DNA from: Candidatus Nanohalarchaeota archaeon
GTDB taxonomy: Archaea > Nanohalarchaeota > Nanosalinia > Nanosalinales > Nanosalinaceae
Direction of reading: 5' to 3'
Length of the DNA stretch: 64,000 bases
Assembly (NCBI GenBank): GCA_022729235.1
Contig: JALDAJ010000001.1
Coordinates: 736,001-800,000 of the forward strand
Position numbers and translations under genes: made by a program. The stretch's first letter is position 1. Every line of letters begins with the position of its first letter. Shown here one piece after another: positions 5,109-30,021 of this stretch. Under the pieces are notes generated by a model. That model was not told the origin of the DNA and ran no database searches. It saw nothing but the letters and a program-made list of their open reading frames with translations.

Positions 5109-5563
5109 TCTAGAAGTTTGAGCTGGTTCCAGAGTAAGTCAAGAGAGTAACTCTCTCCTTCTTGATACTTTTCTAAGACCTTTTTTCTATTTTCATGTCT
5201 TAAATCGAGTTCCGGAATTTTCTCCTTCGGTATGAATTTAACATCCAGTATCTCTCCTTTCCCAGGAGGTTCTTCAAATTTTTTCTCTACAGGTTCTGCA
5301 GTGAATCTAAAAGAAATGTTCTCAGTTCCGTCTCTCTGATTAAGCTCCTTGTAAACTCCAAGGAATCCTGTGATTTCGATTTTATAGCCGGTTTCTTCCA
5401 GTACCTCTCTTTTTACGCACTCAATAATTGACTCTCTATCCTCCCATCCTCCACCTGGAAAGTCCCATGTCTCGTGAACATGGTCTTTCCCTTCTTGAAC
5501 CATCAGAATCTCTCCTTTATCGTTTTCAACAATTGCTCCTGCACTGGCGTAGAAAGATGACAT
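5105..5563 (-). CDS. NUDIX hydrolase
   Basis: Nudix box PGGGWEDRESIIECVKREVLEETG. Confidence 0.92.
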   Translation of the reverse strand: MSSFYASAGAIVENDKGEILMVQEGKDHVHETWDFPGGGWEDRESIIECVKREVLEETGYKIEITGFLGVYKELNQRDGTENISFRFTAEPVEKKFEEPPGKGEILDVKFIPKEKIPELDLRHENRKKVLEKYQEGESYSLDLLWNQLKLLD

Positions 5564-5974
5564 TTATTTCTCCTTGATTATGTGTTTCCGCGCTAGTTTT
5601 ATGATTTCTTCTGCTCTTTCTTTTTGGGTTGTTTCGCCTCTGTATCTTATATCGTTCCTAAGTTTTCTGAATTGGTTTATTTTGTTAGCTTCTGCTTCTG
5701 TCAGTATGTTGTTTTCTTTTGCGTATGCGATTATTGCTTCGTGGTTGTATGGTTTGTAGCCTTGCTCTGCCATGAACGATTGTAGGCGCTGTCTCAGGGC
5801 TTCGTAGGCGTCTTCAAACTTGAATGTTGCGTTTTCTTCTGTTAGTTCTGACTTTCCTATCTGTTGTTTGAACCGGTTTTCGGCCTGTTTCTTCAGTGAT
5901 TTTGCCTCTGATTTTGATGACGATCCGGTTCTTACCTTTCCTTCTTTTAGGTATTCTTCGAAGCTTTTCATCAT
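5564..5974 (-). CDS. HEPN-domain protein (toxin of an MNT-HEPN pair)
   Basis: All-helical 136 aa with AYEA...GY...H...RKLRNDIRY (Rx4H-like motif ending in Y); overlaps the upstream MNT gene by 4 nt. Confidence 0.8.
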   Translation of the reverse strand: MMKSFEEYLKEGKVRTGSSSKSEAKSLKKQAENRFKQQIGKSELTEENATFKFEDAYEALRQRLQSFMAEQGYKPYNHEAIIAYAKENNILTEAEANKINQFRKLRNDIRYRGETTQKERAEEIIKLARKHIIKEK

Positions 5975-6492
5975 TCCATTTCCAGATAGCCATACAGTGT
6001 TATTCCATTGGCAAGTGTTTCGAGCATGTTCCTTGGTATTTCTTCTTTTTTGAACTCTGTTACTGATACTTCTCTATCCATTATCTCCTCTTCTGTGTCT
6101 GCAGTTTCTGTGGTTATGACTGCTATGTCTATATCGCTATCCTCCACATCCTCTCCCTTTGCGAAGCTCCCGAAAAGCACAATTGCTTCAGGATATGAGT
6201 ATTTTTCTACTATTTGATCTATTAAAGAGCTTTGATAAAGTTTTTCCAGATTTATAACTTGTTTTAGTCTTAAAGCGTCTATATTATCTCTTTTAAAGGT
6301 TGTTAGTCTCTGATTTCCTCTCTTTCTTGTCTTGACTATGCCTTCTTCTTCGAACTTCCTGATTTTCTCCGAGATCCAGGGCTTTGACAGTCCGGTCTCT
6401 CTTGCGACCTCAGATATACTGAATTCTGTAGTTGGATGAGTACAGAAGAATTTCAGCAGCTCGGTTTCAGCATCGTTAATTAAACTTAACAT
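5971..6492 (-). CDS. wHTH plus minimal nucleotidyltransferase (MNT) antitoxin
   Basis: N-terminal HTH (FSISEVARETGLSKPWIS) and LFGSFAKGEDVEDSDIDIAVI MNT motif. Confidence 0.9.
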   Translation of the reverse strand: MLSLINDAETELLKFFCTHPTTEFSISEVARETGLSKPWISEKIRKFEEEGIVKTRKRGNQRLTTFKRDNIDALRLKQVINLEKLYQSSLIDQIVEKYSYPEAIVLFGSFAKGEDVEDSDIDIAVITTETADTEEEIMDREVSVTEFKKEEIPRNMLETLANGITLYGYLEME

Positions 6493-21839: not shown

Positions 21840-22848
21840 TGTAGTTCAGGATAAACTCCTTGGTTAGTATCAGGAGTAGCGGTCCAAGTATTATGCCCTT
21901 CAGTCCGAGTGTAAGCGGTCCTGCAAGGAAGCCTATGAAGATTATCAGCGGATGTTCATTCATCTTTTTCGCGCCGATATAGGGTCTGAAGAAGATTTCT
22001 GGCAGGATATTGATCACTACTACGCCGAATCCGATGATAAGCGAGCCTTTGAGGGGTTCGCCGGCGAATAGGTAGTAAGCGCCCAGTGGCGCGTACAGCA
22101 TGAACCCTGCTACTATAGGTAGTAGTGCCGCTACCGCGATAATCACTGCCCAGAGAGGTATCAATGGGATGGAGGAGGTGATGTTTGCTATCACGTAGAA
22201 CCCTAGCGCGGTGAGAACACCTATAACTGCCGCGACCAGGAGCTGTGTGATGAAGACTCCTCTAAAGATAGAGTCTATAGATCTTATCAGTGAACGGATG
22301 ATTTTTTCCTCATTTTCTGGTAAGTTATCTATTATGTCGAAGATTTTTTCCTTAATCCGGTCCCCGTCCTTGTAGAGATAGATAAGGGTGACGAGGTAGA
22401 TGCCGAGGTCTATCATTATCCGCGGTATAGAGGCTAGCGTAGATCTCAGGTAATTCTCAAGACCTATGAGTAGGGTGTTGGTGAATTCGACGACCTGTGC
22501 CCGGAACTCTTCGGGCAGGTTCAGGAAGTCTATTACGGCGTTGATGTTCCTCTGGAGATCTAGCGCGAATACCTGTAAAGATATGAGGATGTCGTGGAAG
22601 TTATTGATGAAAAAGAACAACCCCAGGCTTATCGCTCCTATAACGGATGAGATGACTATTATTGAGGACAGGAAATCATTTTCCAGTCGCTGGTTCAGTC
22701 CGCGATGGGCGAATCTTAAAAGATAAGCTGTCGCTGCCGCCAGTATCAGTGCGTCAAGGAAGGGATACAAAACAAATATGCTTCCCAGGGCTAGCAGTAC
22801 CGCCGCCCCGAGTATCTCTCTCTTGAAACGGGTATTATCTGGCGACAT
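21820..22848 (-). CDS. AI-2E (PerM) family transporter
   Basis: Multi-TM protein with YLYKDG, RPY...HPLIIFIG..AG...G..GIILGP signature. Confidence 0.9.
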   Translation of the reverse strand: MSPDNTRFKREILGAAVLLALGSIFVLYPFLDALILAAATAYLLRFAHRGLNQRLENDFLSSIIVISSVIGAISLGLFFFINNFHDILISLQVFALDLQRNINAVIDFLNLPEEFRAQVVEFTNTLLIGLENYLRSTLASIPRIMIDLGIYLVTLIYLYKDGDRIKEKIFDIIDNLPENEEKIIRSLIRSIDSIFRGVFITQLLVAAVIGVLTALGFYVIANITSSIPLIPLWAVIIAVAALLPIVAGFMLYAPLGAYYLFAGEPLKGSLIIGFGVVVINILPEIFFRPYIGAKKMNEHPLIIFIGFLAGPLTLGLKGIILGPLLLILTKEFILNYTNLVSS

Positions 22849-22988
22849 TAGACTATATTGGGTATATCTACGTTTTATTATCTGTGACAGTGAACATGTT
22901 GTCACCGAAGAGTCAGGCAACCTTTGGAAAGATATTTAAATGTGGGGGGTAAACTTGTAGGATATTGCAGGGGGAGGGACAAGTTTCT

Positions 22989-24110
22989 ATGTCCAAAAAT
23001 GATACTATGTCAGAACAGGAGCACGTACCGCGTCGCGATTTCGACTCATACCAGGTTCCCGAAGACTGGGAAACTGAAGAAGATGAAGACGAAAACCTAG
23101 AGGAAGAAGCAGCACCAGAGGCTGAAGAGTCTGGAGAAGAGAAAACTGTCGCTGAAGGCGAAGGATATACTGTAGTCCAGGAAGAAGCCGAAGAAGGCGA
23201 CATGGTTCTAACATGTCCCGAATGTGAATCACAGAGATTCGAGGAAGATTCCGCAGAAGGACAGCTTGTCTGTGTAGATTGTGGGGTAGTTGTCGATGAG
23301 AACCGGATCGATGAATCCGCAGAGTGGAGGGCGTTCAACGAGGAAGAGCGTGAGAAGAAGGCTCGCGCCGGACAGCCTCTTACATACACGAAACACGACA
23401 TGGGAGTATCGACCGAGATCGGTAAAGGTTCTGGAGAGCTTTACAAGGTTTCTGGTAATAAAAGAGCCCAGTACTACAGGCTGAGGAAATGGCACAAGCG
23501 CCTGACAAAGTCCAAGGACCGCAACCTCGGGTTCGCTCTATCCGAACTCAACTCGATGGTGTCCAACCTCAACCTTCCCGAATCAGTCCACGAAGAAGTC
23601 GCCCGACTATACGAGAAAGCGGTCGACAAGGGACTGGTGAGAGGACGTTCCATGGAGTCCATCATCTCCGCGCTACTCTACATCGTCGCGAGAAAACAGG
23701 GGACTCCAAGGACTCTTGACGAGATCTCCGAGGCTTCAGGCATCGAGAAGAGAGAGATCGGTAGAGCATACCGTTACGTTGCGCGTGAACTCGGACTCAG
23801 AATCCTACCGGCGAAGCCGCAGGACTACGTACCGCGTTTCGCTGGAAAACTCCAGCTATCAGGAGAAGTCCAGGCAAGAGCGCGTCAAATTCTCAAGGAA
23901 GCAAGAGAAAAAGACCTTCTGTCCGGTAAAGGACCGACAGGTCTCGCAGCCGCCGCGCTCTACATCGCCGCAGTACTCGAAGGCGAGAAGAGAACGCAGA
24001 GAGAAGTAGCAGACGTAGTCGGAGTCACCGAGGTCACGATCAGGAACCGCTACAAAGAACTTGCGGAGAAACTCGGCCTCGAAGAAGAGCTGGAAGAGAA
24101 GTCGAATTGA
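22989..24110 (+). CDS. tfb: Transcription initiation factor TFB with acidic N-terminal extension
   Basis: Zn ribbon CPEC...CVDCG, B-reader EWRAF, two cyclin repeats, C-terminal HTH VTEVTIRNRYKE; start at 22989 or 23007. Confidence 0.98.
   Translation: MSKNDTMSEQEHVPRRDFDSYQVPEDWETEEDEDENLEEEAAPEAEESGEEKTVAEGEGYTVVQEEAEEGDMVLTCPECESQRFEEDSAEGQLVCVDCGVVVDENRIDESAEWRAFNEEEREKKARAGQPLTYTKHDMGVSTEIGKGSGELYKVSGNKRAQYYRLRKWHKRLTKSKDRNLGFALSELNSMVSNLNLPESVHEEVARLYEKAVDKGLVRGRSMESIISALLYIVARKQGTPRTLDEISEASGIEKREIGRAYRYVARELGLRILPAKPQDYVPRFAGKLQLSGEVQARARQILKEAREKDLLSGKGPTGLAAAALYIAAVLEGEKRTQREVADVVGVTEVTIRNRYKELAEKLGLEEELEEKSN
24030..24110 (+). repeat. Direct repeat, copy 1 (last 27 codons of tfb; att-like)
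   Basis: 81 bp, 76/81 identical to 25676-25756, with a perfect 62-bp core at 24039-24100. Confidence 0.97.
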
Positions 24111-24449
24111 TCGGCTTTTCATATTTCCTTCTATTTATTTTTCTTCTACCTTCAGATTTTGACGTCAAGCAAGTTTTTTGACCGGTGATTAAAGCCGGTA
24201 AACGGTTACAGTTTAGCGACTTAGATTGGCAGGCGTAATCAGGAAGTCTGGCGTTCGTGAAGAAGACGTAAACGCTGGAGCAGAGTTCTATGAAAGACTC
24301 GTGAAAGGGTACAGGAGCTGTTTGCAGAGATGTAGAAAGAGCTGAAGGCAACGGACGAAAGACAGCGATGTTTATGTCTTAAACGTCTCTCGCTTTGACT
24401 GGCAGTTTTCCCAATTTATTTCTTTTCTTTTTCTATTCTCTCAAGAGTC

Positions 24450-25619
24450 CTATGTCAATTGCGATAGGCGCCATAATTGAGCTAAAATGATTAAAATACT
24501 TGATATGATGAATAATGCCTTTAAAGACTTGATGACAAAGTTTTTCGACCTTATAATTTTATCCTCGGAGCTTGGTAGTTCTATCTTGTATTTTGGATAG
24601 ACTTCTTCCGATCCAGAAAGTTTGAAGTTGTAAGATGGATTCACTTTTTCTCCGTTAACGATTATGGCTGAATTCTGTAATTTGTATATTTTTGGCCATT
24701 TTTGGGCTCTATTGATATAGCTTATTCTATCTTTTGTCTTATCACTTATTCTAAAGTCCTCATCTAAGCAGTCTAAGGCCTCTATCAGTGCGGTTTCTTC
24801 TATTCTACACAAATGACTCTCTTCATCAAGCTCAATTATTAATTTTTTAGGCTTTTCTTCAGAAAGGTCGCTAGCTTTGTTGGGATATACTCTGTCAGGA
24901 TAAAGATGTTCATGTCCTCTGAAGTAGGGTGCGGAGTCTTCGTACCCACAGTTTTCGCAGGTAAAATCCCATCCTTTTGTGATTATTTCGTTGCTGTTGC
25001 ATACTGGACAGGTGTATTCTTCATCAGGATTGTCTTCAGGGTTGTACAGATTCTCATAATCAATCTCCTGCGAGGGTTTTTTATCAAACATTTTAAAATC
25101 GTGTTTGTGGTAAAAGTATGCGGGTAAATACGAGTAACCCTGATATGGTGATCTCAATTCCTCCAGATTATCAGATGAGAAAAGATGCGGTCTCTTTATT
25201 TCCTCATCTTTACTCCAGAAAAATAGATTAGAACGTTCTTCGTCCACTTTATCAAGTCCTGTTTCCGTTATATTGTACAGTCTGGCGCTTACAGATTCGT
25301 CGCTCCGGCTTACTTCTAAAAGTCTAGAAGCGGCATCTGCGAGTATTGAGAAGTCTTTAGGATTTTTCTGAGGGCAGGGCATCTTTTCTACATATTTATT
25401 TCCAATGAATACTCTGTTGTCGCCGATAAACTCGCCTACAAGCTTATCTTTATCTACTTCTATATCGTCCTCTTGGACATCAAAAAGTTTAGCTACTCTT
25501 TCCAGACGTTTATCTTCTTTTTCTTGGTTTTCATCTCTTAAAATGATAATTTCTTTGTTTATTTGTTTCAGGGCAGCTTCTGGATTTTCTGATTCGATAA
25601 GGTAATACTCTATTGCCAC
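24450..25619 (-). CDS. Hypothetical protein with Zn ribbon and C-terminal TM helix
   Basis: CPVCNS...FTCENCG; hydrophobic C-terminus; AT-rich codon usage; GTG start. Confidence 0.75.
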   Translation of the reverse strand: MAIEYYLIESENPEAALKQINKEIIILRDENQEKEDKRLERVAKLFDVQEDDIEVDKDKLVGEFIGDNRVFIGNKYVEKMPCPQKNPKDFSILADAASRLLEVSRSDESVSARLYNITETGLDKVDEERSNLFFWSKDEEIKRPHLFSSDNLEELRSPYQGYSYLPAYFYHKHDFKMFDKKPSQEIDYENLYNPEDNPDEEYTCPVCNSNEIITKGWDFTCENCGYEDSAPYFRGHEHLYPDRVYPNKASDLSEEKPKKLIIELDEESHLCRIEETALIEALDCLDEDFRISDKTKDRISYINRAQKWPKIYKLQNSAIIVNGEKVNPSYNFKLSGSEEVYPKYKIELPSSEDKIIRSKNFVIKSLKALFIISSILIILAQLWRLSQLT

Positions 25620-25675
25620 AATAGCAATTTGAAGGTGCTTAAATGTTAAATTTATTCAGCGTTTATAGCTGAGGA

Positions 25676-25756
25676 GAGGTCACAATCAGGAACCGCTACA
25701 AAGAACTTGCGGAGAAACTCGGCCTCGAAGAAGAGCTGGAAGAGAAATCCAACTAA
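25676..25756 (+). repeat. Direct repeat, copy 2 (detached tfb 3' fragment, EVTIRNRYKELAEKLGLEEELEEKSN*)
   Basis: Encodes the same peptide as the tfb C-terminus; differences ACG/ACA, AAG/AAA, TCG/TCC, AAT/AAC, TGA/TAA. Confidence 0.97.
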
Positions 25757-25843
25757 CGCGTGGTTACGCTCGAGCGGGACGCAAGAAGCCATTCAACTGA
25801 ATGGCTTTCGCCGCTAACGCGGCGCACTTATTTCTCTATTTTT
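25753..25843 (+). terminator. Palindrome cluster and T-tract after the detached tfb 3' copy
   Basis: CGCTCGAGCG (25767-25776), AAGCCATTCA-AC-TGAATGGCTT (25786-25807), CGCCGC-TAAC-GCGGCG (25809-25824), then TTATTTCTCTATTTTT. Confidence 0.55.
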
Positions 25844-25999
25844 ATATTGTTTATCTGAGAATGTCTCTAGATTTCGGTTCAAAGCTCGAGTCCTGCCGAT
25901 TTTATGTTTCCACATTTCTAAGGAGTTTGGGAGATGCCAAAGAAGTGCGAATTATTCTTTACCAGAGCGTAATAAAATTTTATTTTTAGATTTGACTCT

Positions 26000-27097
26000 A
26001 TGGGTTCGGCAAAAACAGAATCACAAAAAGAAATTTCGGCTGAAGAAATAGCCGATATAGACAGTTTGGGAGATTTAAGAGATTTGACAAATGAAGAATG
26101 TATTGAGGCTGCTTATTCTAAAGCCAAAGAGGTTTGGTGGGAAGATAAATTTAGTCCTCCAGACACTGAAACTGAGAGTCTGCCAGGAGAATCTGTTGAG
26201 ATCGAGGGAACTAATTATGAAATACATCCTGTTGACCATGGTCTGAATGCGCCATTAATGAAGCCAGGAAGTGAAATTGTAGAATCGGTTCAAGGAGAAG
26301 TAGAGGATGTTCTGAGTGATAATGGCGAAGTATACATTGAACAAGACTTGAAGGGACAATTTGACTTGGAAAGCTTTGATGTCACAGAAATCGATGATAG
26401 GTCTTGGGCCGATAACCAGTTTGACGAATATAAGGAGATAGATGGGCTAATTGGGCAATCTAAAACGCTGGGTAAAGTGTGCTTAGCCGTACCTCTTATA
26501 GCAGGAATCAAAGGTTATGAGGCGCTAACAGGAAACCGAGTGTTTGATGAAGAAGGTTATAACGGCATCTATGCCAGAGAAGATATTGGCGAACTGGAAG
26601 TTTTGAAAGCAGATATGGAGGCAAGATTCCTGCCAACTGATTTAGAAGAAGAATACCTTTGGGAAACAGACTCTGAGAAAGCTATTAACTTAATTGAACG
26701 CTCTAATAGAATGGCAGATTACATATTTAATGTATCGGACTCCGAAGAGGTACGTGCTATTGTAGGAGGAGCTCACTATCCCTTTGTCATGGATAGACTT
26801 CAGGAATACAAGGAGGGAGAAAGAAATCAAGAGATTGAGTTCGATATTTACACAGTGAATTTGGAGCCGGAAAGACCTGCAGCAATAAGCTTGGCTTCAG
26901 GCCTAATATCAGCTTACTTTTTATCACAGGGAGAGATGAGAGCTGCCAAGGCTTTTGGAGGAATTTCGGCTCTTTCAGGTACGATGGCCGGAGTCTCATA
27001 CTGGGCTTCCTCAACGCTGAAGACCGTGACAAATGATATGCAGAACTCTCAAGTACCGGATTCACATTTATACGCCGAAGGTTATATCGAGGAGTAA
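26000..27097 (+). CDS. TraB/GumN (TIKI)-like protein with C-terminal hydrophobic segments
   Basis: HPVDHG...YIE...ERSNRMADYI...VRAIVGGAH resembles the TraB motif R(N/D)..MA...VGA.H; AT-rich. Confidence 0.6.
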   Translation: MGSAKTESQKEISAEEIADIDSLGDLRDLTNEECIEAAYSKAKEVWWEDKFSPPDTETESLPGESVEIEGTNYEIHPVDHGLNAPLMKPGSEIVESVQGEVEDVLSDNGEVYIEQDLKGQFDLESFDVTEIDDRSWADNQFDEYKEIDGLIGQSKTLGKVCLAVPLIAGIKGYEALTGNRVFDEEGYNGIYAREDIGELEVLKADMEARFLPTDLEEEYLWETDSEKAINLIERSNRMADYIFNVSDSEEVRAIVGGAHYPFVMDRLQEYKEGERNQEIEFDIYTVNLEPERPAAISLASGLISAYFLSQGEMRAAKAFGGISALSGTMAGVSYWASSTLKTVTNDMQNSQVPDSHLYAEGYIEE

Positions 27098-27156
27098 AAG
27101 GGATTCCGAAATATCTGATTGCGTATCTTTTGATTCTCAAATCTTGGCTCTGCAAC

Positions 27157-27465
27157 TCATTCTTCTCCGTGCAGCCTATGTTTCTGCGGGTCGTAGATGT
27201 AGTGTTCCCAGAGTTTCTGGAGCTGTGGTAGTGTCATGGTTGCGAGTACGAAGGCGACCGCGGGGACTACAGAGTTGATGAACGGGTCTGGTAGATCGGC
27301 GGCGAAGAAGTAGATTACGATCACAATGTATGTCAGGACTGTTATAGCTATTCTTCGTTCCCAGCTGATTTCCCATGCCTTGTCTTTCTCCGCTTTCTTG
27401 TTTCTGTCCTTTATCTGTTCTATTTCTTCTTCAAGTCCGTCAACGCGTTTTTCTAAATCGGCCAT
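27157..27465 (-). CDS. Small membrane protein (coiled coil plus 2 TM)
   Basis: RNKKAEKDKAWEISWERR followed by two hydrophobic helices. Confidence 0.75.
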   Translation of the reverse strand: MADLEKRVDGLEEEIEQIKDRNKKAEKDKAWEISWERRIAITVLTYIVIVIYFFAADLPDPFINSVVPAVAFVLATMTLPQLQKLWEHYIYDPQKHRLHGEE

Positions 27466-27525
27466 ATTAATTTCTGTTGAACTTCTCTCTAATAATATTT
27501 TTTAGTGGTTTGTCCTGTTACGGGG

Positions 27526-28044
27526 TCATTCTGTGTTTTTCGTGTATGTAGTGAAGCTGGTATCTTCGCGCAGGTAGAAGTCTATGGTTCTCTTGAGTTC
27601 GTGGTAGGAGATGTTTCTCTGTGAGACATATGTCTCGGTTCTGTCCTGGATCAGGTGGTTCTGTTTCAGGAAGTCCCAGTGGTCGATCCTGTCTGAGAGG
27701 TAGTTGTCTCCTATTTCTTCTAGTTTATCCTTGACTGGTCTCTCCAAGTATCTCTCTATAAGGTCAGGTTCTTCCTCGATATCGACTTCTATGAAAAGTC
27801 TTTGCTCGCAGTACGAACCGCCTACCTGGACAAGGTGTTTGATCCTGACTTCTTCCAGATTTTCGTATTCCGGGAGGTCTTGCAGATTGAATCGTCCCTC
27901 CAACCTTTCAAGAAGCTCTCTGTAATCTACGTCCTCTGCTTCATAGCTGCCAGGAAATACTTCCTCTAGGTCGGTCTCTAGATTTGCTGCCGGGTTACGT
28001 ATGTATATATCTGAGTCTTTGCGAAAACCTCGTGAATGCTTCAT
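27526..28044 (-). CDS. Hypothetical protein
   Basis: 172-aa acidic ORF. Confidence 0.6.
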   Translation of the reverse strand: MKHSRGFRKDSDIYIRNPAANLETDLEEVFPGSYEAEDVDYRELLERLEGRFNLQDLPEYENLEEVRIKHLVQVGGSYCEQRLFIEVDIEEEPDLIERYLERPVKDKLEEIGDNYLSDRIDHWDFLKQNHLIQDRTETYVSQRNISYHELKRTIDFYLREDTSFTTYTKNTE

Positions 28045-28104
28045 TTTGCCGGGTAAGAAGTTCTATCGCTTGGTTTCTATCCTGTCTGAACTGCCGCGTT
28101 ACCT

Positions 28105-28470
28105 TTAAATAGAGAAATTACGTAGGAGTGAATTCAGCCATGATGAATCATCCAGAGCGCTCTTAAGCTCATTGATTGTCTCTTCTTCGTAAGGACCGAG
28201 AGATATTGTTCCCGTGTATTCTCTATTCTGTCCGTTGTCCTGTACATGTAGTTTGTCGTGTCGATCAGGGTCATCGGTTTCTCTGACCTCTGCATAGAGC
28301 CAGCCATCTCTAGGTGAATAGTCGAGGAATAGAGAAGAAGGGATTTCGCCGGTCCGATCTGGGACTAGGATACTATGTAGTGTAGGGAAGTCTATAGTTC
28401 CTTCTGCTTCAGTTTTATAGGTTTCAGTTGTATGGTCTTGGGTATAGTCTTGGGATATTTCGATCTCCTT
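28105..28470 (-). pseudogene. 121-codon acidic reading frame lacking a canonical start codon
   Basis: Manual translation (K)EIEISQDYTQDHTTETYKTEAEGTIDFPTLHSILVPDRTGEIPSSLFLDYSPRDGWLYAEV...LLRNFSI*; purine-rich SD-like GGGAG before AAG at 28470. Confidence 0.55.
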
Positions 28471-28510
28471 TCTGCTCCCTCTCCCCTGGGAAAAAGTACT
28501 TTACATTTGT

Positions 28511-29602
28511 TTATGTATGTTTGCGTATAATCTCTTTCACATCTTCTATCGGTGCGTCAGTTCGGAAACCAGTCGGCGAGAAGTGAGTCCTAGACACAGG
28601 ATAGCCTTTCCCATCTATAGCTTCTATTACGAGGTCCCGTTTCGGCACTTCGATGTCCATGACTGAGGCGAGCTCGTGGAGGTCGTAGAACGGCGTGACT
28701 ATCTCCGCCTCGCTGTCAATATGCTCCAGGAGTTCCAGCGAGTCTTCCCAGTCCTCTGGCATCTCCTCCAGCATTCTGGAAGTGAAGCGCTGGTCTGCGA
28801 TTTTTCCCGTCCAGAGAGGTCCGGCGACCCGTGTTTCTGAGTCGCATTCAGGACAGTTTCCGGCACGCTCCAGTTTCCGCCACCTACATTTCGGGCAGAA
28901 TGAGAGATAACCGATTTTATCCAGCGCGTTATTGGTGCGCTGTTTCGACTCGGTGACCCGACCCATAACTCGGGAGTAGTGCTGTTCGTGCCAGCAAACT
29001 TTTGGGTCGAACTCCTTGTCGAACCGGGCGAAGTTTTCGAAGACGGCCTTGATGTATATCCTGAGACCTGTCTCGTGCATGAAACTGTTCTTCAATGGCA
29101 TGGAGGCGTACCGTCTCCTGCAAACCTTTGAGTATGTTCCGGCTGGCGCCGCGTTATCTGTCGCGGTCAAACCAACGAAGCTTGAATGGGATGCGGCTCT
29201 AGCGGTGGAGTCGAGGAAAGATGTGAACGGTCCGAAGGGGTCGATGTCTATTATGTGCAGATAGTTCCGGTGCTGTGACAGGAAGACATTCGCGTCCTCA
29301 TTGTAGACCTCTGCCTTGATACCGTTTACTTCGAGACCTTTCTCTATGCTTTCAATCGCTTCCGGGTTAGTGTCATTCAGGTATACGTTCCCGAGTTCCG
29401 AGTACCTGAAACCTCGTATTCCTGATGCTGCGAGGGCATCACATATCCTTGGCTCCTCTATATCGACTTCTTCAAGGAAAACCCTGGCGGCGATTATAGA
29501 CAGGTCGCGGTTGGTCTTCATGTCCTCGTTGTAGAAGACACTGGAAGACTTGTCGGGTTCGTCTTCTTCCGGGACGGATATCTCGTATCCTCTTTCTTCC
29601 AT
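28511..29602 (-). CDS. trm1: tRNA (guanine-26 N2)-dimethyltransferase Trm1
   Basis: VFYN.DM..NRDLS, DALAASGIRG.RY, IDIDPFG, TATD, HETGLR, GPLWTG, SRTHF. Confidence 0.96.
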   Translation of the reverse strand: MEERGYEISVPEEDEPDKSSSVFYNEDMKTNRDLSIIAARVFLEEVDIEEPRICDALAASGIRGFRYSELGNVYLNDTNPEAIESIEKGLEVNGIKAEVYNEDANVFLSQHRNYLHIIDIDPFGPFTSFLDSTARAASHSSFVGLTATDNAAPAGTYSKVCRRRYASMPLKNSFMHETGLRIYIKAVFENFARFDKEFDPKVCWHEQHYSRVMGRVTESKQRTNNALDKIGYLSFCPKCRWRKLERAGNCPECDSETRVAGPLWTGKIADQRFTSRMLEEMPEDWEDSLELLEHIDSEAEIVTPFYDLHELASVMDIEVPKRDLVIEAIDGKGYPVSRTHFSPTGFRTDAPIEDVKEIIRKHT

Positions 29603-29661
29603 GCAACTTTGTTGCGATACAAAAAGTTTTTAAACCAGAGCCAGTCTTCCGCATTTAGCAG

Positions 29662-29673
29662 GGTTTATAAACC
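29662..29673 (+). promoter_or_regulatory. Palindromic TATA element GGTTTATAAACC between divergent trm1 and the ATP synthase operon
   Basis: TTTATAAA core about 33 nt before the atpH ATG. Confidence 0.55.
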
Positions 29674-29703
29674 TATCTTCTAATCCTTATCTGGAGATTT
29701 TCC

Positions 29704-30021
29704 ATGTCAAATGTTGTCAGTCAAGTCAGGAAAGCCGAGAAAGACGCGGATTCTATCATCGAAGAGGCGGAGGAAGAAGCCGATAAAATTATAGAAGAAG
29801 CGAGGCAGGAAGCCCAGGAGATTATCTCTGGTGCGGAAAAGAAAGCATCGGAGATGAAGCGAGAAAGAATCGAGCGCTTCAGAGATAAGCTCGAAGAGAA
29901 AAAGGAAGAGATAACAGAGGATGGAGAAGATGAAGCTGATGAGCTCGCGGATAAAGCATCACAGAACAGAGAGGACGCGGTCGAGCTTCTTGTAGCGCAG
30001 TTTGAAGAAGAGTTTCTTTGA
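29704..30021 (+). CDS. atpH: A-type ATP synthase subunit H
   Basis: Charged helical stalk protein, first gene of the operon. Confidence 0.85.
   Translation: MSNVVSQVRKAEKDADSIIEEAEEEADKIIEEARQEAQEIISGAEKKASEMKRERIERFRDKLEEKKEEITEDGEDEADELADKASQNREDAVELLVAQFEEEFL

Follow-up and report, generated by a model that had tools for sequence, protein, structure and literature searches.

Two tfb 3' ends in tandem around 1.65 kb of accessory DNA in a nanohaloarchaeal genome: a candidate scar of recombination between related lineages

Introduction

How does a conserved gene in a highly reduced archaeal genome come to have its own last codons standing a second time downstream, with accessory DNA in between? 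This question is raised by a 64,000-nucleotide stretch (hereafter the window) from a Candidatus Nanohalarchaeota archaeon (assembly GCA_022729235.1), a small inhabitant of salt lakes. The genome was assembled as one contig (JALDAJ010000001.1; 1,027,595 bp, 48.5% GC, 95% completeness and 0.04% contamination), of which the window covers positions 736001-800000. Positions given below are those of the window unless they are marked as genome positions. The gene concerned is tfb, encoding transcription initiation factor B (22989-24110, plus strand), whose final 81 bp, 27 codons including the stop, are repeated 1646 bp downstream at 25676-25756.

A first-pass annotation, which was made from the letters of the window without database searches, had described the locus as an integrase-free insert between two silently diverged tfb tails and had proposed that tfb serves as a landing site for cassette exchange. 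In this study, we followed up that description with family, structure, population and relative-genome searches. Our analyses showed that the two tails are tfb 3' ends which had each worked in a lineage of their own before they came, recently, to stand in tandem, and that the event looks like a recent recombination scar in a single lineage, not the work of a dedicated mobile element targeting tfb.

Results

The tfb gene is intact and codes for 373 amino acids with a TFIIB zinc ribbon and two cyclin repeats. It matched the Pfam TFIIB repeats at E 4.9e-47 (158.3 bits) and Zn_Ribbon_TF at 2.8e-15 (56 bits), and its score of 404.7 bits against NCBIfam NF001658 lies above the cut-off of 384, which places it in the TFB/TFIIB family. 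Orthologues in relatives are syntenic and share 84-92% amino acid identity, and two more distant tfb paralogues were found elsewhere in the genome. Tail copy 1 (24030-24110, plus strand) is the live end of the gene with its TGA stop. Tail copy 2 (25676-25756, plus strand) ends in TAA and is displaced and non-coding: no open reading frame (ORF) covers it, and an in-frame TGA stands two codons upstream at 25670-25672. Alignment, blastn and a codon check reproduced the first-pass description of the repeat exactly, with five differences, all silent, around a perfect core of 62 bp (24039-24100, identical to 25685-25746). Four of the differences fall on third codon positions (ACG/ACA, AAG/AAA, TCG/TCC and AAT/AAC) and the fifth changes the stop (TGA/TAA), so that both copies encode the same 26 residues followed by a stop.

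Only these two copies of the tail were found by blastn in the whole 1.03-Mb genome (E 2.6e-29). In a simulation of 200,000 trials, five random substitutions were all silent in 0.035% of cases (0.068% with transition bias), and a run of at least 20 unchanged codons with 5 of 27 codons changed was seen in 0.14%. A chance origin of the repeat is excluded by the blastn E value together with the all-silent probability of ~3.5e-4. Because all five differences are silent (P ~3.5e-4 to 7e-4), the two alleles diverged while both of them were functional.

Each tail is also followed by a 3' flank of tfb type. In other genera, a small hairpin and a T-rich run make up the short 3' flank behind tfb. Flank 1 (24111-24150, plus strand) is T-rich and terminator-like, and flank 2 (25810-25841, plus strand) consists of a hairpin and a T-rich stretch. 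By local alignment, with z-scores that are rough because they come from mononucleotide shuffles of T-rich sequence, flank 1 resembled the native tfb flanks of three relatives (z 7.3 for G009, 6.8 for G024 and 5.7 for G008) and flank 2 that of G024 (z 10.3), none of 300 shuffles doing as well in any of these comparisons; flank 1 against flank 2 reached only z 2.3. The flanks are thus much more diverged than the coding tails. Since each tail has its own diverged tfb flank, the duplicated unit resembles a piece of the tfb locus and not a minimal attachment (att) site. The silent-only pattern and the two family-type flanks bear out the first-pass view that both tails were once working tfb ends, and place them in separate lineages. 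Such an origin of the copies, from functional alleles of two lineages, is what homologous recombination calls for.

It had further been supposed that the incoming DNA carried a tfb tail which restored the gene. The insertion does leave tfb intact, but the assumption about which copy came in fared less well. The TGA stop of copy 1 is rare, the tfb genes of 11 relatives inspected ending in TGA once, in TAA five times and in TAG five times, and it is common to the sole same-genus genome, a weak hint that copy 1 is the native end.

Sequencing depth was taken from de Bruijn contigs (Logan, k=31) of three runs, among which X1 is the probable source sample. In X1, the left flank had a depth of 14.5, a 62-nucleotide core contig 27.1, a 1644-nucleotide insert contig 12.9 and the right flank 14.0; the left-flank contig ends inside the core and the right-flank contig starts inside it. 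The core is therefore present in two genomic copies and the insert at ~0.9x chromosomal depth, which supports integration, with linkage itself left unproven by contigs of k=31. The depths fit an integrated form in most or all cells. As the core (62 bp) is longer than k (31), the same graph would arise from the integrated form or from an empty site plus a circle of equal depth.

In a second sample, X2, insert and flank pieces were present at ~3x. One contig of 229 nucleotides from this sample (23910-24138, depth 2.7) holds a variant in which the tfb end continues into flank 1. It differs at nine sites, of which six are listed, all synonymous by codon check and four of them inside the core; the other three, near the contig ends, are unlisted. 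In the X2 strain, synonymous divergence of ~4-5% is limited to the final ~170 nucleotides of tfb, the neighbouring pieces being 99-100% identical. Within the population, recombination seems to concentrate at the 3' end of tfb, as at a hotspot, and the variation of the core there fits local homogenisation in this genome.

The DNA between the tails is AT-rich, as had been noted, with 36.9% GC in orf389, 36.2% in flank 1 and 30% in the spacer, where the whole genome has 48.5% and tfb 52.4%. It had been credited with one orphan gene. The orphan, orf389, was confirmed as such, but it is not the only content: the insert also holds a frameshifted pseudogene (24226-24382, plus strand) of a small conserved chromosomal gene of 55 amino acids, recognized by nucleotide matches to genes of relatives. 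The pseudogene shares ~70% nucleotide identity with single-copy genes in relatives, and its two halves match in different frames. In the relatives, the match lies within an open frame of 62-87 amino acids at six of the eight loci inspected. At the seventh locus, L027, it lies on the opposite strand, with listed frames of 76 (minus) and 98 (plus) amino acids, and at the eighth, L025, no frame of at least 60 amino acids covers it. A reading of ~140 nucleotides at 24227-24365 as an RNA gene was rejected, given the open frames at six of eight relatives' loci and the frameshift here.

The 55-amino-acid gene is chromosomal, mostly single-copy among the matching relatives and conserved across the family; one genome, G021, carries it as two tandem copies. 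The native gene of the present genome lies at genome positions 880894-881061 (minus strand). No Pfam family was assigned to it, a weak match to archaeal histones staying below threshold (E 9.7e-4; 19.5 bits, where 50 are needed). The name DUF1931, considered for it at first, was not confirmed.

The predicted product of orf389 (24450-25619, minus strand) combines an alpha/beta domain at its N terminus with a CxxC...CxxC zinc ribbon and a beta-grasp-like domain, and has a hydrophobic helix at its C terminus. Pfam, PHROG, PADLOC and NCBIfam assigned it to no family, the only Pfam row being a sub-threshold zinc ribbon, and it was found in none of 40 relatives. Among 1.84 billion (1.84e9) representatives there were 18 matches. 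Six metagenome loci with orf389 homologues lie on brine contigs of ~35% GC with tfb absent nearby, and in the four of these loci that were scanned no gene-tail repeats flank the homologue. Alignment searches gave no match in genome contigs or in viral contigs, and tblastn against phage and plasmid records gave none either. An AlphaFold (AF2) model built on an alignment of five sequences was mediocre, with a predicted local distance difference test (pLDDT) score of 67.7. Foldseek found no match to it in the PDB at E <= 1e-3, the VIA wide structure search peaked at Z 6.4 with the common beta-grasp fold (residues 255-351), and the best score in the ESM Atlas, 0.76, was uninformative. Neither the family searches nor the fold searches on this mediocre model returned a recombinase or nuclease signal for orf389.

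The insert as a whole is free of an integrase, as had been claimed, as far as sequence and fold searches reach. Pfam and PHROG returned no transposase family in it, and none of six inverted pairs forms terminal inverted repeats at its ends. It lacks what defines a transposon or insertion sequence, and its repeat is 81 bp long, not a short target-site duplication. Rfam gave no match in 22000-30000 or in four related loci, and ARAGORN no tRNA within the window. Between orf389 and tail copy 2 lies an AT-rich spacer (25620-25675, minus strand; 30% GC) which ends abruptly at the tail and is, we infer, the probable promoter of orf389. The junction at 25675/25676 shares at most a few bases and shows no clear microhomology.

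As to the extent of the insert, the repeat-bounded unit stood up to analysis, but the AT-rich accessory DNA does not end with it at 25756. It continues to trm1 (28511-29602, minus strand), the gene of a tRNA N2,N2-dimethylguanosine methyltransferase (Pfam TRM, 1.8e-91), which is the convergent, conserved neighbour of tfb and is syntenic in relatives. The gap between tfb and trm1 measures 4.4 kb here and is low in GC throughout, and the repeat-bounded 1.65 kb form only the first part of this accessory island. The rest (25842-28510) contains orf365 (26000-27097, plus strand), orf102 (27157-27465, minus strand) and orf172 (27526-28044, minus strand), a low-GC region for which Pfam, PHROG and PADLOC gave no match. 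Weak matches to orf365 were found in 7 of the 69 other genomes of the order and matches to orf172 in none of them. No duplicate of the trm1 end was found within the island.

A GC-rich segment of three hairpins (25757-25825, plus strand; minimum free energy -32.9 kcal/mol) is placed between tail copy 2 and flank 2. It resembles introns found in two of the genome's tRNA genes: blastn-short aligned 30 nucleotides at 90% identity with the intron of the tRNA at genome positions 259729-259878, and the same intron family occurs in tRNA-Thr(GGT) (genome 863906-864053). Matches to the segment in relatives fell inside intron-bearing tRNA genes at three of the four loci fetched. The segment is thus an intron-like element standing outside any tRNA gene. 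Such introns are frequent in the genome, where ARAGORN called 15 tRNA genes without its intron option and 35 with it, so that 20 of the 35 carry introns (30-203 nucleotides); several anticodon calls for the intron-bearing tRNAs look unreliable.

The gene order of the locus is conserved in relatives, with a PIN-domain gene, an AI-2E transporter, tfb and convergent trm1. The first-pass annotation had suggested comparing the regions downstream of tfb for variable cassettes and extra tails. Variability was indeed found, the gap between tfb and trm1 ranging from ~60 bp to 4.7 kb, but extra tails were not. A tail-only extra copy of tfb occurs in 1 of 70 genomes of the order, which is the present one, and all 69 others lack a second tail, the single-tail state being the norm; tail-only candidates in G027 and G022 were rejected as truncations at contig ends. 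In five relatives whose gaps between tfb and trm1 were examined in full, there was no second tail, and no integrase was recognised by eye, with no family search made on these gaps. What the gap of G015 contains looks, by eye, like ordinary housekeeping genes, and the sole same-genus genome has a different island of 3.6 kb at tfb. No relative examined has the arrangement of tfb, flank 1, small gene and orf389. The proposed search of viral sequences for the core came out empty: a 38-nucleotide piece of it had no match in viral contigs or in contigs of species-representative genomes, and a degenerate tail pattern had none in viral contigs. A regular use of tfb as a landing site for cassettes therefore found no support, with the extra tail in one of 70 genomes and in none of the five gaps.

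Two tyrosine recombinases (PF00589) are encoded in the genome, at 841 kb and 862 kb, both outside this locus, and blastn over the whole genome found no tail-like sequence near either. The one of 461 amino acids (locus at genome 862442-864018) has a C-terminal CxxC zinc ribbon and adjoins the intron-bearing tRNA-Thr(GGT); beside it lies a RadC/JAB-like gene, judged from sequence alone, and this locus is probably an integrated element. A second integrase-free cassette was found at genome positions 158796-159678. It is AT-rich and bounded by a partial repeat of tRNA-Pro(TGG), the partial copy (41 nucleotides, one mismatch) lying 842 bp from the intact gene. Its cargo is a nucleotidyltransferase-HEPN (MNT-HEPN) pair (Pfam 5.4e-13 and 7.3e-20), and a gene for a ParE-like toxin lies just outside it.

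Other repeats were observed in the genome as well. Three further pairs of intergenic direct repeats of 58-61 nucleotides (85-93% identity) lie at genome positions 5508-6383, 75221-76706 and 263248-268085 and enclose 0.8-4.8 kb with small ORFs. Such pairs may mark the borders of cassettes or have arisen by duplication of a promoter or terminator. A tandem array outside the window, at genome positions 823235-823939, has units of ~108 bp with 74-81% identity between blocks and exact stretches of up to 117 nucleotides.

Discussion

Our analyses favour homology-driven recombination with DNA of a related lineage, in which the perfect core would possibly be a later gene-conversion tract; we hold this account first, with a confidence somewhat short of even. 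Homologous recombination ranks first because the event is unique, because no hallmark gene of a mobile element is present, because the insert combines a chromosomal-type pseudogene with a complete tfb-type flank, and because the flanks have diverged far more than the tails. DNA from a related lineage would have brought its own tfb 3' end, that is, a coding tail with its terminator flank, and recombination on the homology of the tail would have linked it to the tfb locus of the recipient. A circularised fragment may have entered by one crossover of Campbell type, or the join may have been homologous at one end and illegitimate at the other, with the anchor in tfb or equally on the side of trm1. 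The product would be an intact tfb, 1.65 kb of accessory DNA with the pseudogene and orf389, and a displaced dead tail, and the five differences would be silent differences that already existed between two functional alleles. The core of 62 bp would represent either the identity needed for homologous recombination or a later gene-conversion tract between the copies. The much greater divergence of the flanks than of the tails, together with the X2 variant allele, suggests that the core may be such a tract rather than a recognition site. The route, the direction, meaning which of the tails came in, and the conversion tract are what we infer from this pattern.

Homology-facilitated illegitimate recombination and Campbell-type crossover are known from the bacterial transformation literature. 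Among archaea, the pTN3 integrase shows homologous-recombination-like activity on identical segments of at least 104 bp (PMC8371274). Their likeness to the tfb locus lies in the short homology in a conserved gene that anchors unrelated DNA, the crossover in the longest identical block and the absence of att machinery. The tfb locus differs in that its homology is only 81 bp long and its non-homologous junction is without clear microhomology. To our knowledge, no experimental system exists for these archaea.

Several observations weigh against homologous recombination as the explanation. First, 81 bp is short for efficient homologous recombination. Second, a perfect block of 62 bp between mismatches also resembles the att site of a site-specific element, and the integrase-free cassette bounded by tRNA-Pro in the same genome is a classical footprint of site-specific integration. 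Third, a donor arrangement of tfb, flank 1, small gene and orf389 was found nowhere, and the relatives of orf389 sit in contigs of 35% GC with no tfb nearby. The context of orf389 implies that the insert is itself a mosaic, which a simple fragment of a close relative's chromosome would not explain. Fourth, the population evidence amounts to one contig of low depth.

The account that survives next best, our main rival and somewhat less probable to us, is that of a decayed or satellite site-specific element resembling a cis-mobilizable element (CIME). Its attP would have carried a tfb tail, integration by a tyrosine recombinase would have restored the gene, and the integrase would later have been lost or would have acted in trans. 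The exact core of 62 bp within 81 bp of similarity, the precise in-frame restoration of tfb, the AT-rich foreign cargo with a promoter region of its own, the two tyrosine recombinases in the genome and the second integrase-free cassette with its partial tRNA-Pro borders all agree with it. In addition, the listed divergence of the X2 variant stops before the last ~20 nucleotides of the tail, and none is listed in flank 1; this would fit a fixed crossover near 24090-24100, uncertain as three of the nine differences are unlisted. Against it, the insert contains no integrase, none was recognised by eye in the gaps of five relatives, and no other copy of the tail occurs near the integrases or anywhere else in the genome. 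The order's 69 other genomes are without a second tail, neither the core nor the degenerate tail occurs in viral contigs, phage and plasmid records gave no match to orf389, and the homologues of this gene in metagenome loci lack such flanking repeats. Furthermore, the insert holds a chromosomal-type pseudogene and a full terminator flank of tfb type.

Known systems show how far such an element would be in company. In the parts consulted of a survey of Thaumarchaeota (PMC6563490), 14 of 68 integrated elements had entered the 3'-distal part of a protein gene, and archaeal att sites of 29-69 bp are cited, a range that includes the 62 bp of the core. Like those elements, the tfb insert lies in the 3' end of a conserved protein gene between direct repeats; as in them, an incoming copy would have given the gene back its frame and stop. 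Unlike it, as described in the same parts of that survey, they carry integrases or hallmark genes and usually have short att sites, whereas the tfb insert has neither an integrase nor a hallmark gene, a cargo of 1.65 kb and a repeat of 81 bp, and occurs in one of 70 genomes. Set beside what defines an archaeal integrated mobile genetic element (iMGE), the locus has the direct repeats, one of them inside the target gene, and lacks the integrase within the element.

In streptococci, integrase-less CIMEs of 1.2-13 kb occupy the genes fda, rpsI and rpmG, with att sites in the 3' end of each gene, as reported in the sections seen of PMC7563491. The tfb insert shares with them its form as a small unit of cargo only, bounded by att-like repeats from the 3' end of a housekeeping gene and devoid of a recombination or transfer module. 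Unlike it, the streptococcal CIMEs, by the same sections, sit in tandem with and derive from integrative and conjugative elements (ICEs) or integrative and mobilizable elements (IMEs) whose integrase recognises their sites. For tfb, no such partner element is known, and the host belongs to the Archaea and not to the streptococci; a cognate element was sought, and the genome has its two tyrosine recombinases with no tail-like sequence nearby, and there is no element at tfb in the relatives searched. Closest at hand is the tRNA-Pro cassette of the same genome, which is likewise small, AT-rich and integrase-free, with a direct repeat of a gene end and the intact gene on one side. It differs from the tfb insert in its classical tRNA target, in its repeat of 41 nucleotides with one mismatch and in its recognisable toxin-antitoxin cargo.

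In form, the tfb locus follows a known pattern, here at a gene that is new as a target: DNA is inserted at the 3' end of a conserved gene, whose terminus is made whole while the old one is displaced. A narrow literature search, made without supplementary tables, found no report of tfb as an integration target. The name tfb has no occurrence in PMC8371274. In the consulted parts of PMC6563490, the single passage on a transcription factor concerns TFIIB genes carried by elements, and tfb is not among the targets there.

A broader form of the site-specific account has an unseen family of nanohaloarchaeal integrative elements attach at the 3' end of tfb, with the 1.65-kb unit as an integrase-less satellite mobilised in trans, which we regard as unlikely. 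If it were true, this family and the tRNA-Pro cassette together would point to a general system of cargo units bounded by gene ends and moving without a recombinase of their own in tiny symbiotic archaea. Histories outside all the explanations framed here have a small share of the probability.

It is improbable that the arrangement is an assembly problem, in which the true order would run from tfb directly to flank 2 and the 1.65 kb would be a separate circle, or come from a co-occurring strain, threaded in through the core. The k=31 graph has the same topology for the integrated form and for an empty site with a circle, and no listed record spans the repeat. The depths speak against this explanation, with the insert (12.9) close to the flanks (14.0-14.5) and the core (27.1) equal to their sum, whereas an insert that came from a separate strain should be clearly shallower. 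It is unlikely that a circle of 1.6 kb without a recognisable replication gene would be kept at exactly the copy number of the chromosome. Moreover, the genome forms one contig of high completeness and minimal contamination, and the second sample has parts of the insert as well as of both flanks, all at a comparably low depth. Least credible of all is a duplication of the tfb end in situ by replication slippage or a repair error, followed by foreign insertion and neutral drift of the spare copy, for although direct repeats around an insert can come from staggered breaks or template switching, neutral drift would give five silent-only changes with P ~3.5e-4, the two flanks are too unlike (z 2.3) and each resembles native flanks of other species, and 81 bp far exceeds known target-site duplications.

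Homology-driven recombination between related lineages thus keeps the first place. Its scope is one event in one genome, and the pattern is known for other genes and organisms. Within this scope, the locus provides a clean and datable case of a highly reduced archaeal genome of ~1 Mb gaining accessory genes beside a conserved transcription factor gene that stays unbroken, and the dead tail, which differs at silent sites only, offers a natural record of recombination between lineages that had diverged. Additional strains at this locus could show whether such genomes gain DNA mainly by homology-anchored recombination or by recombinases acting in trans.

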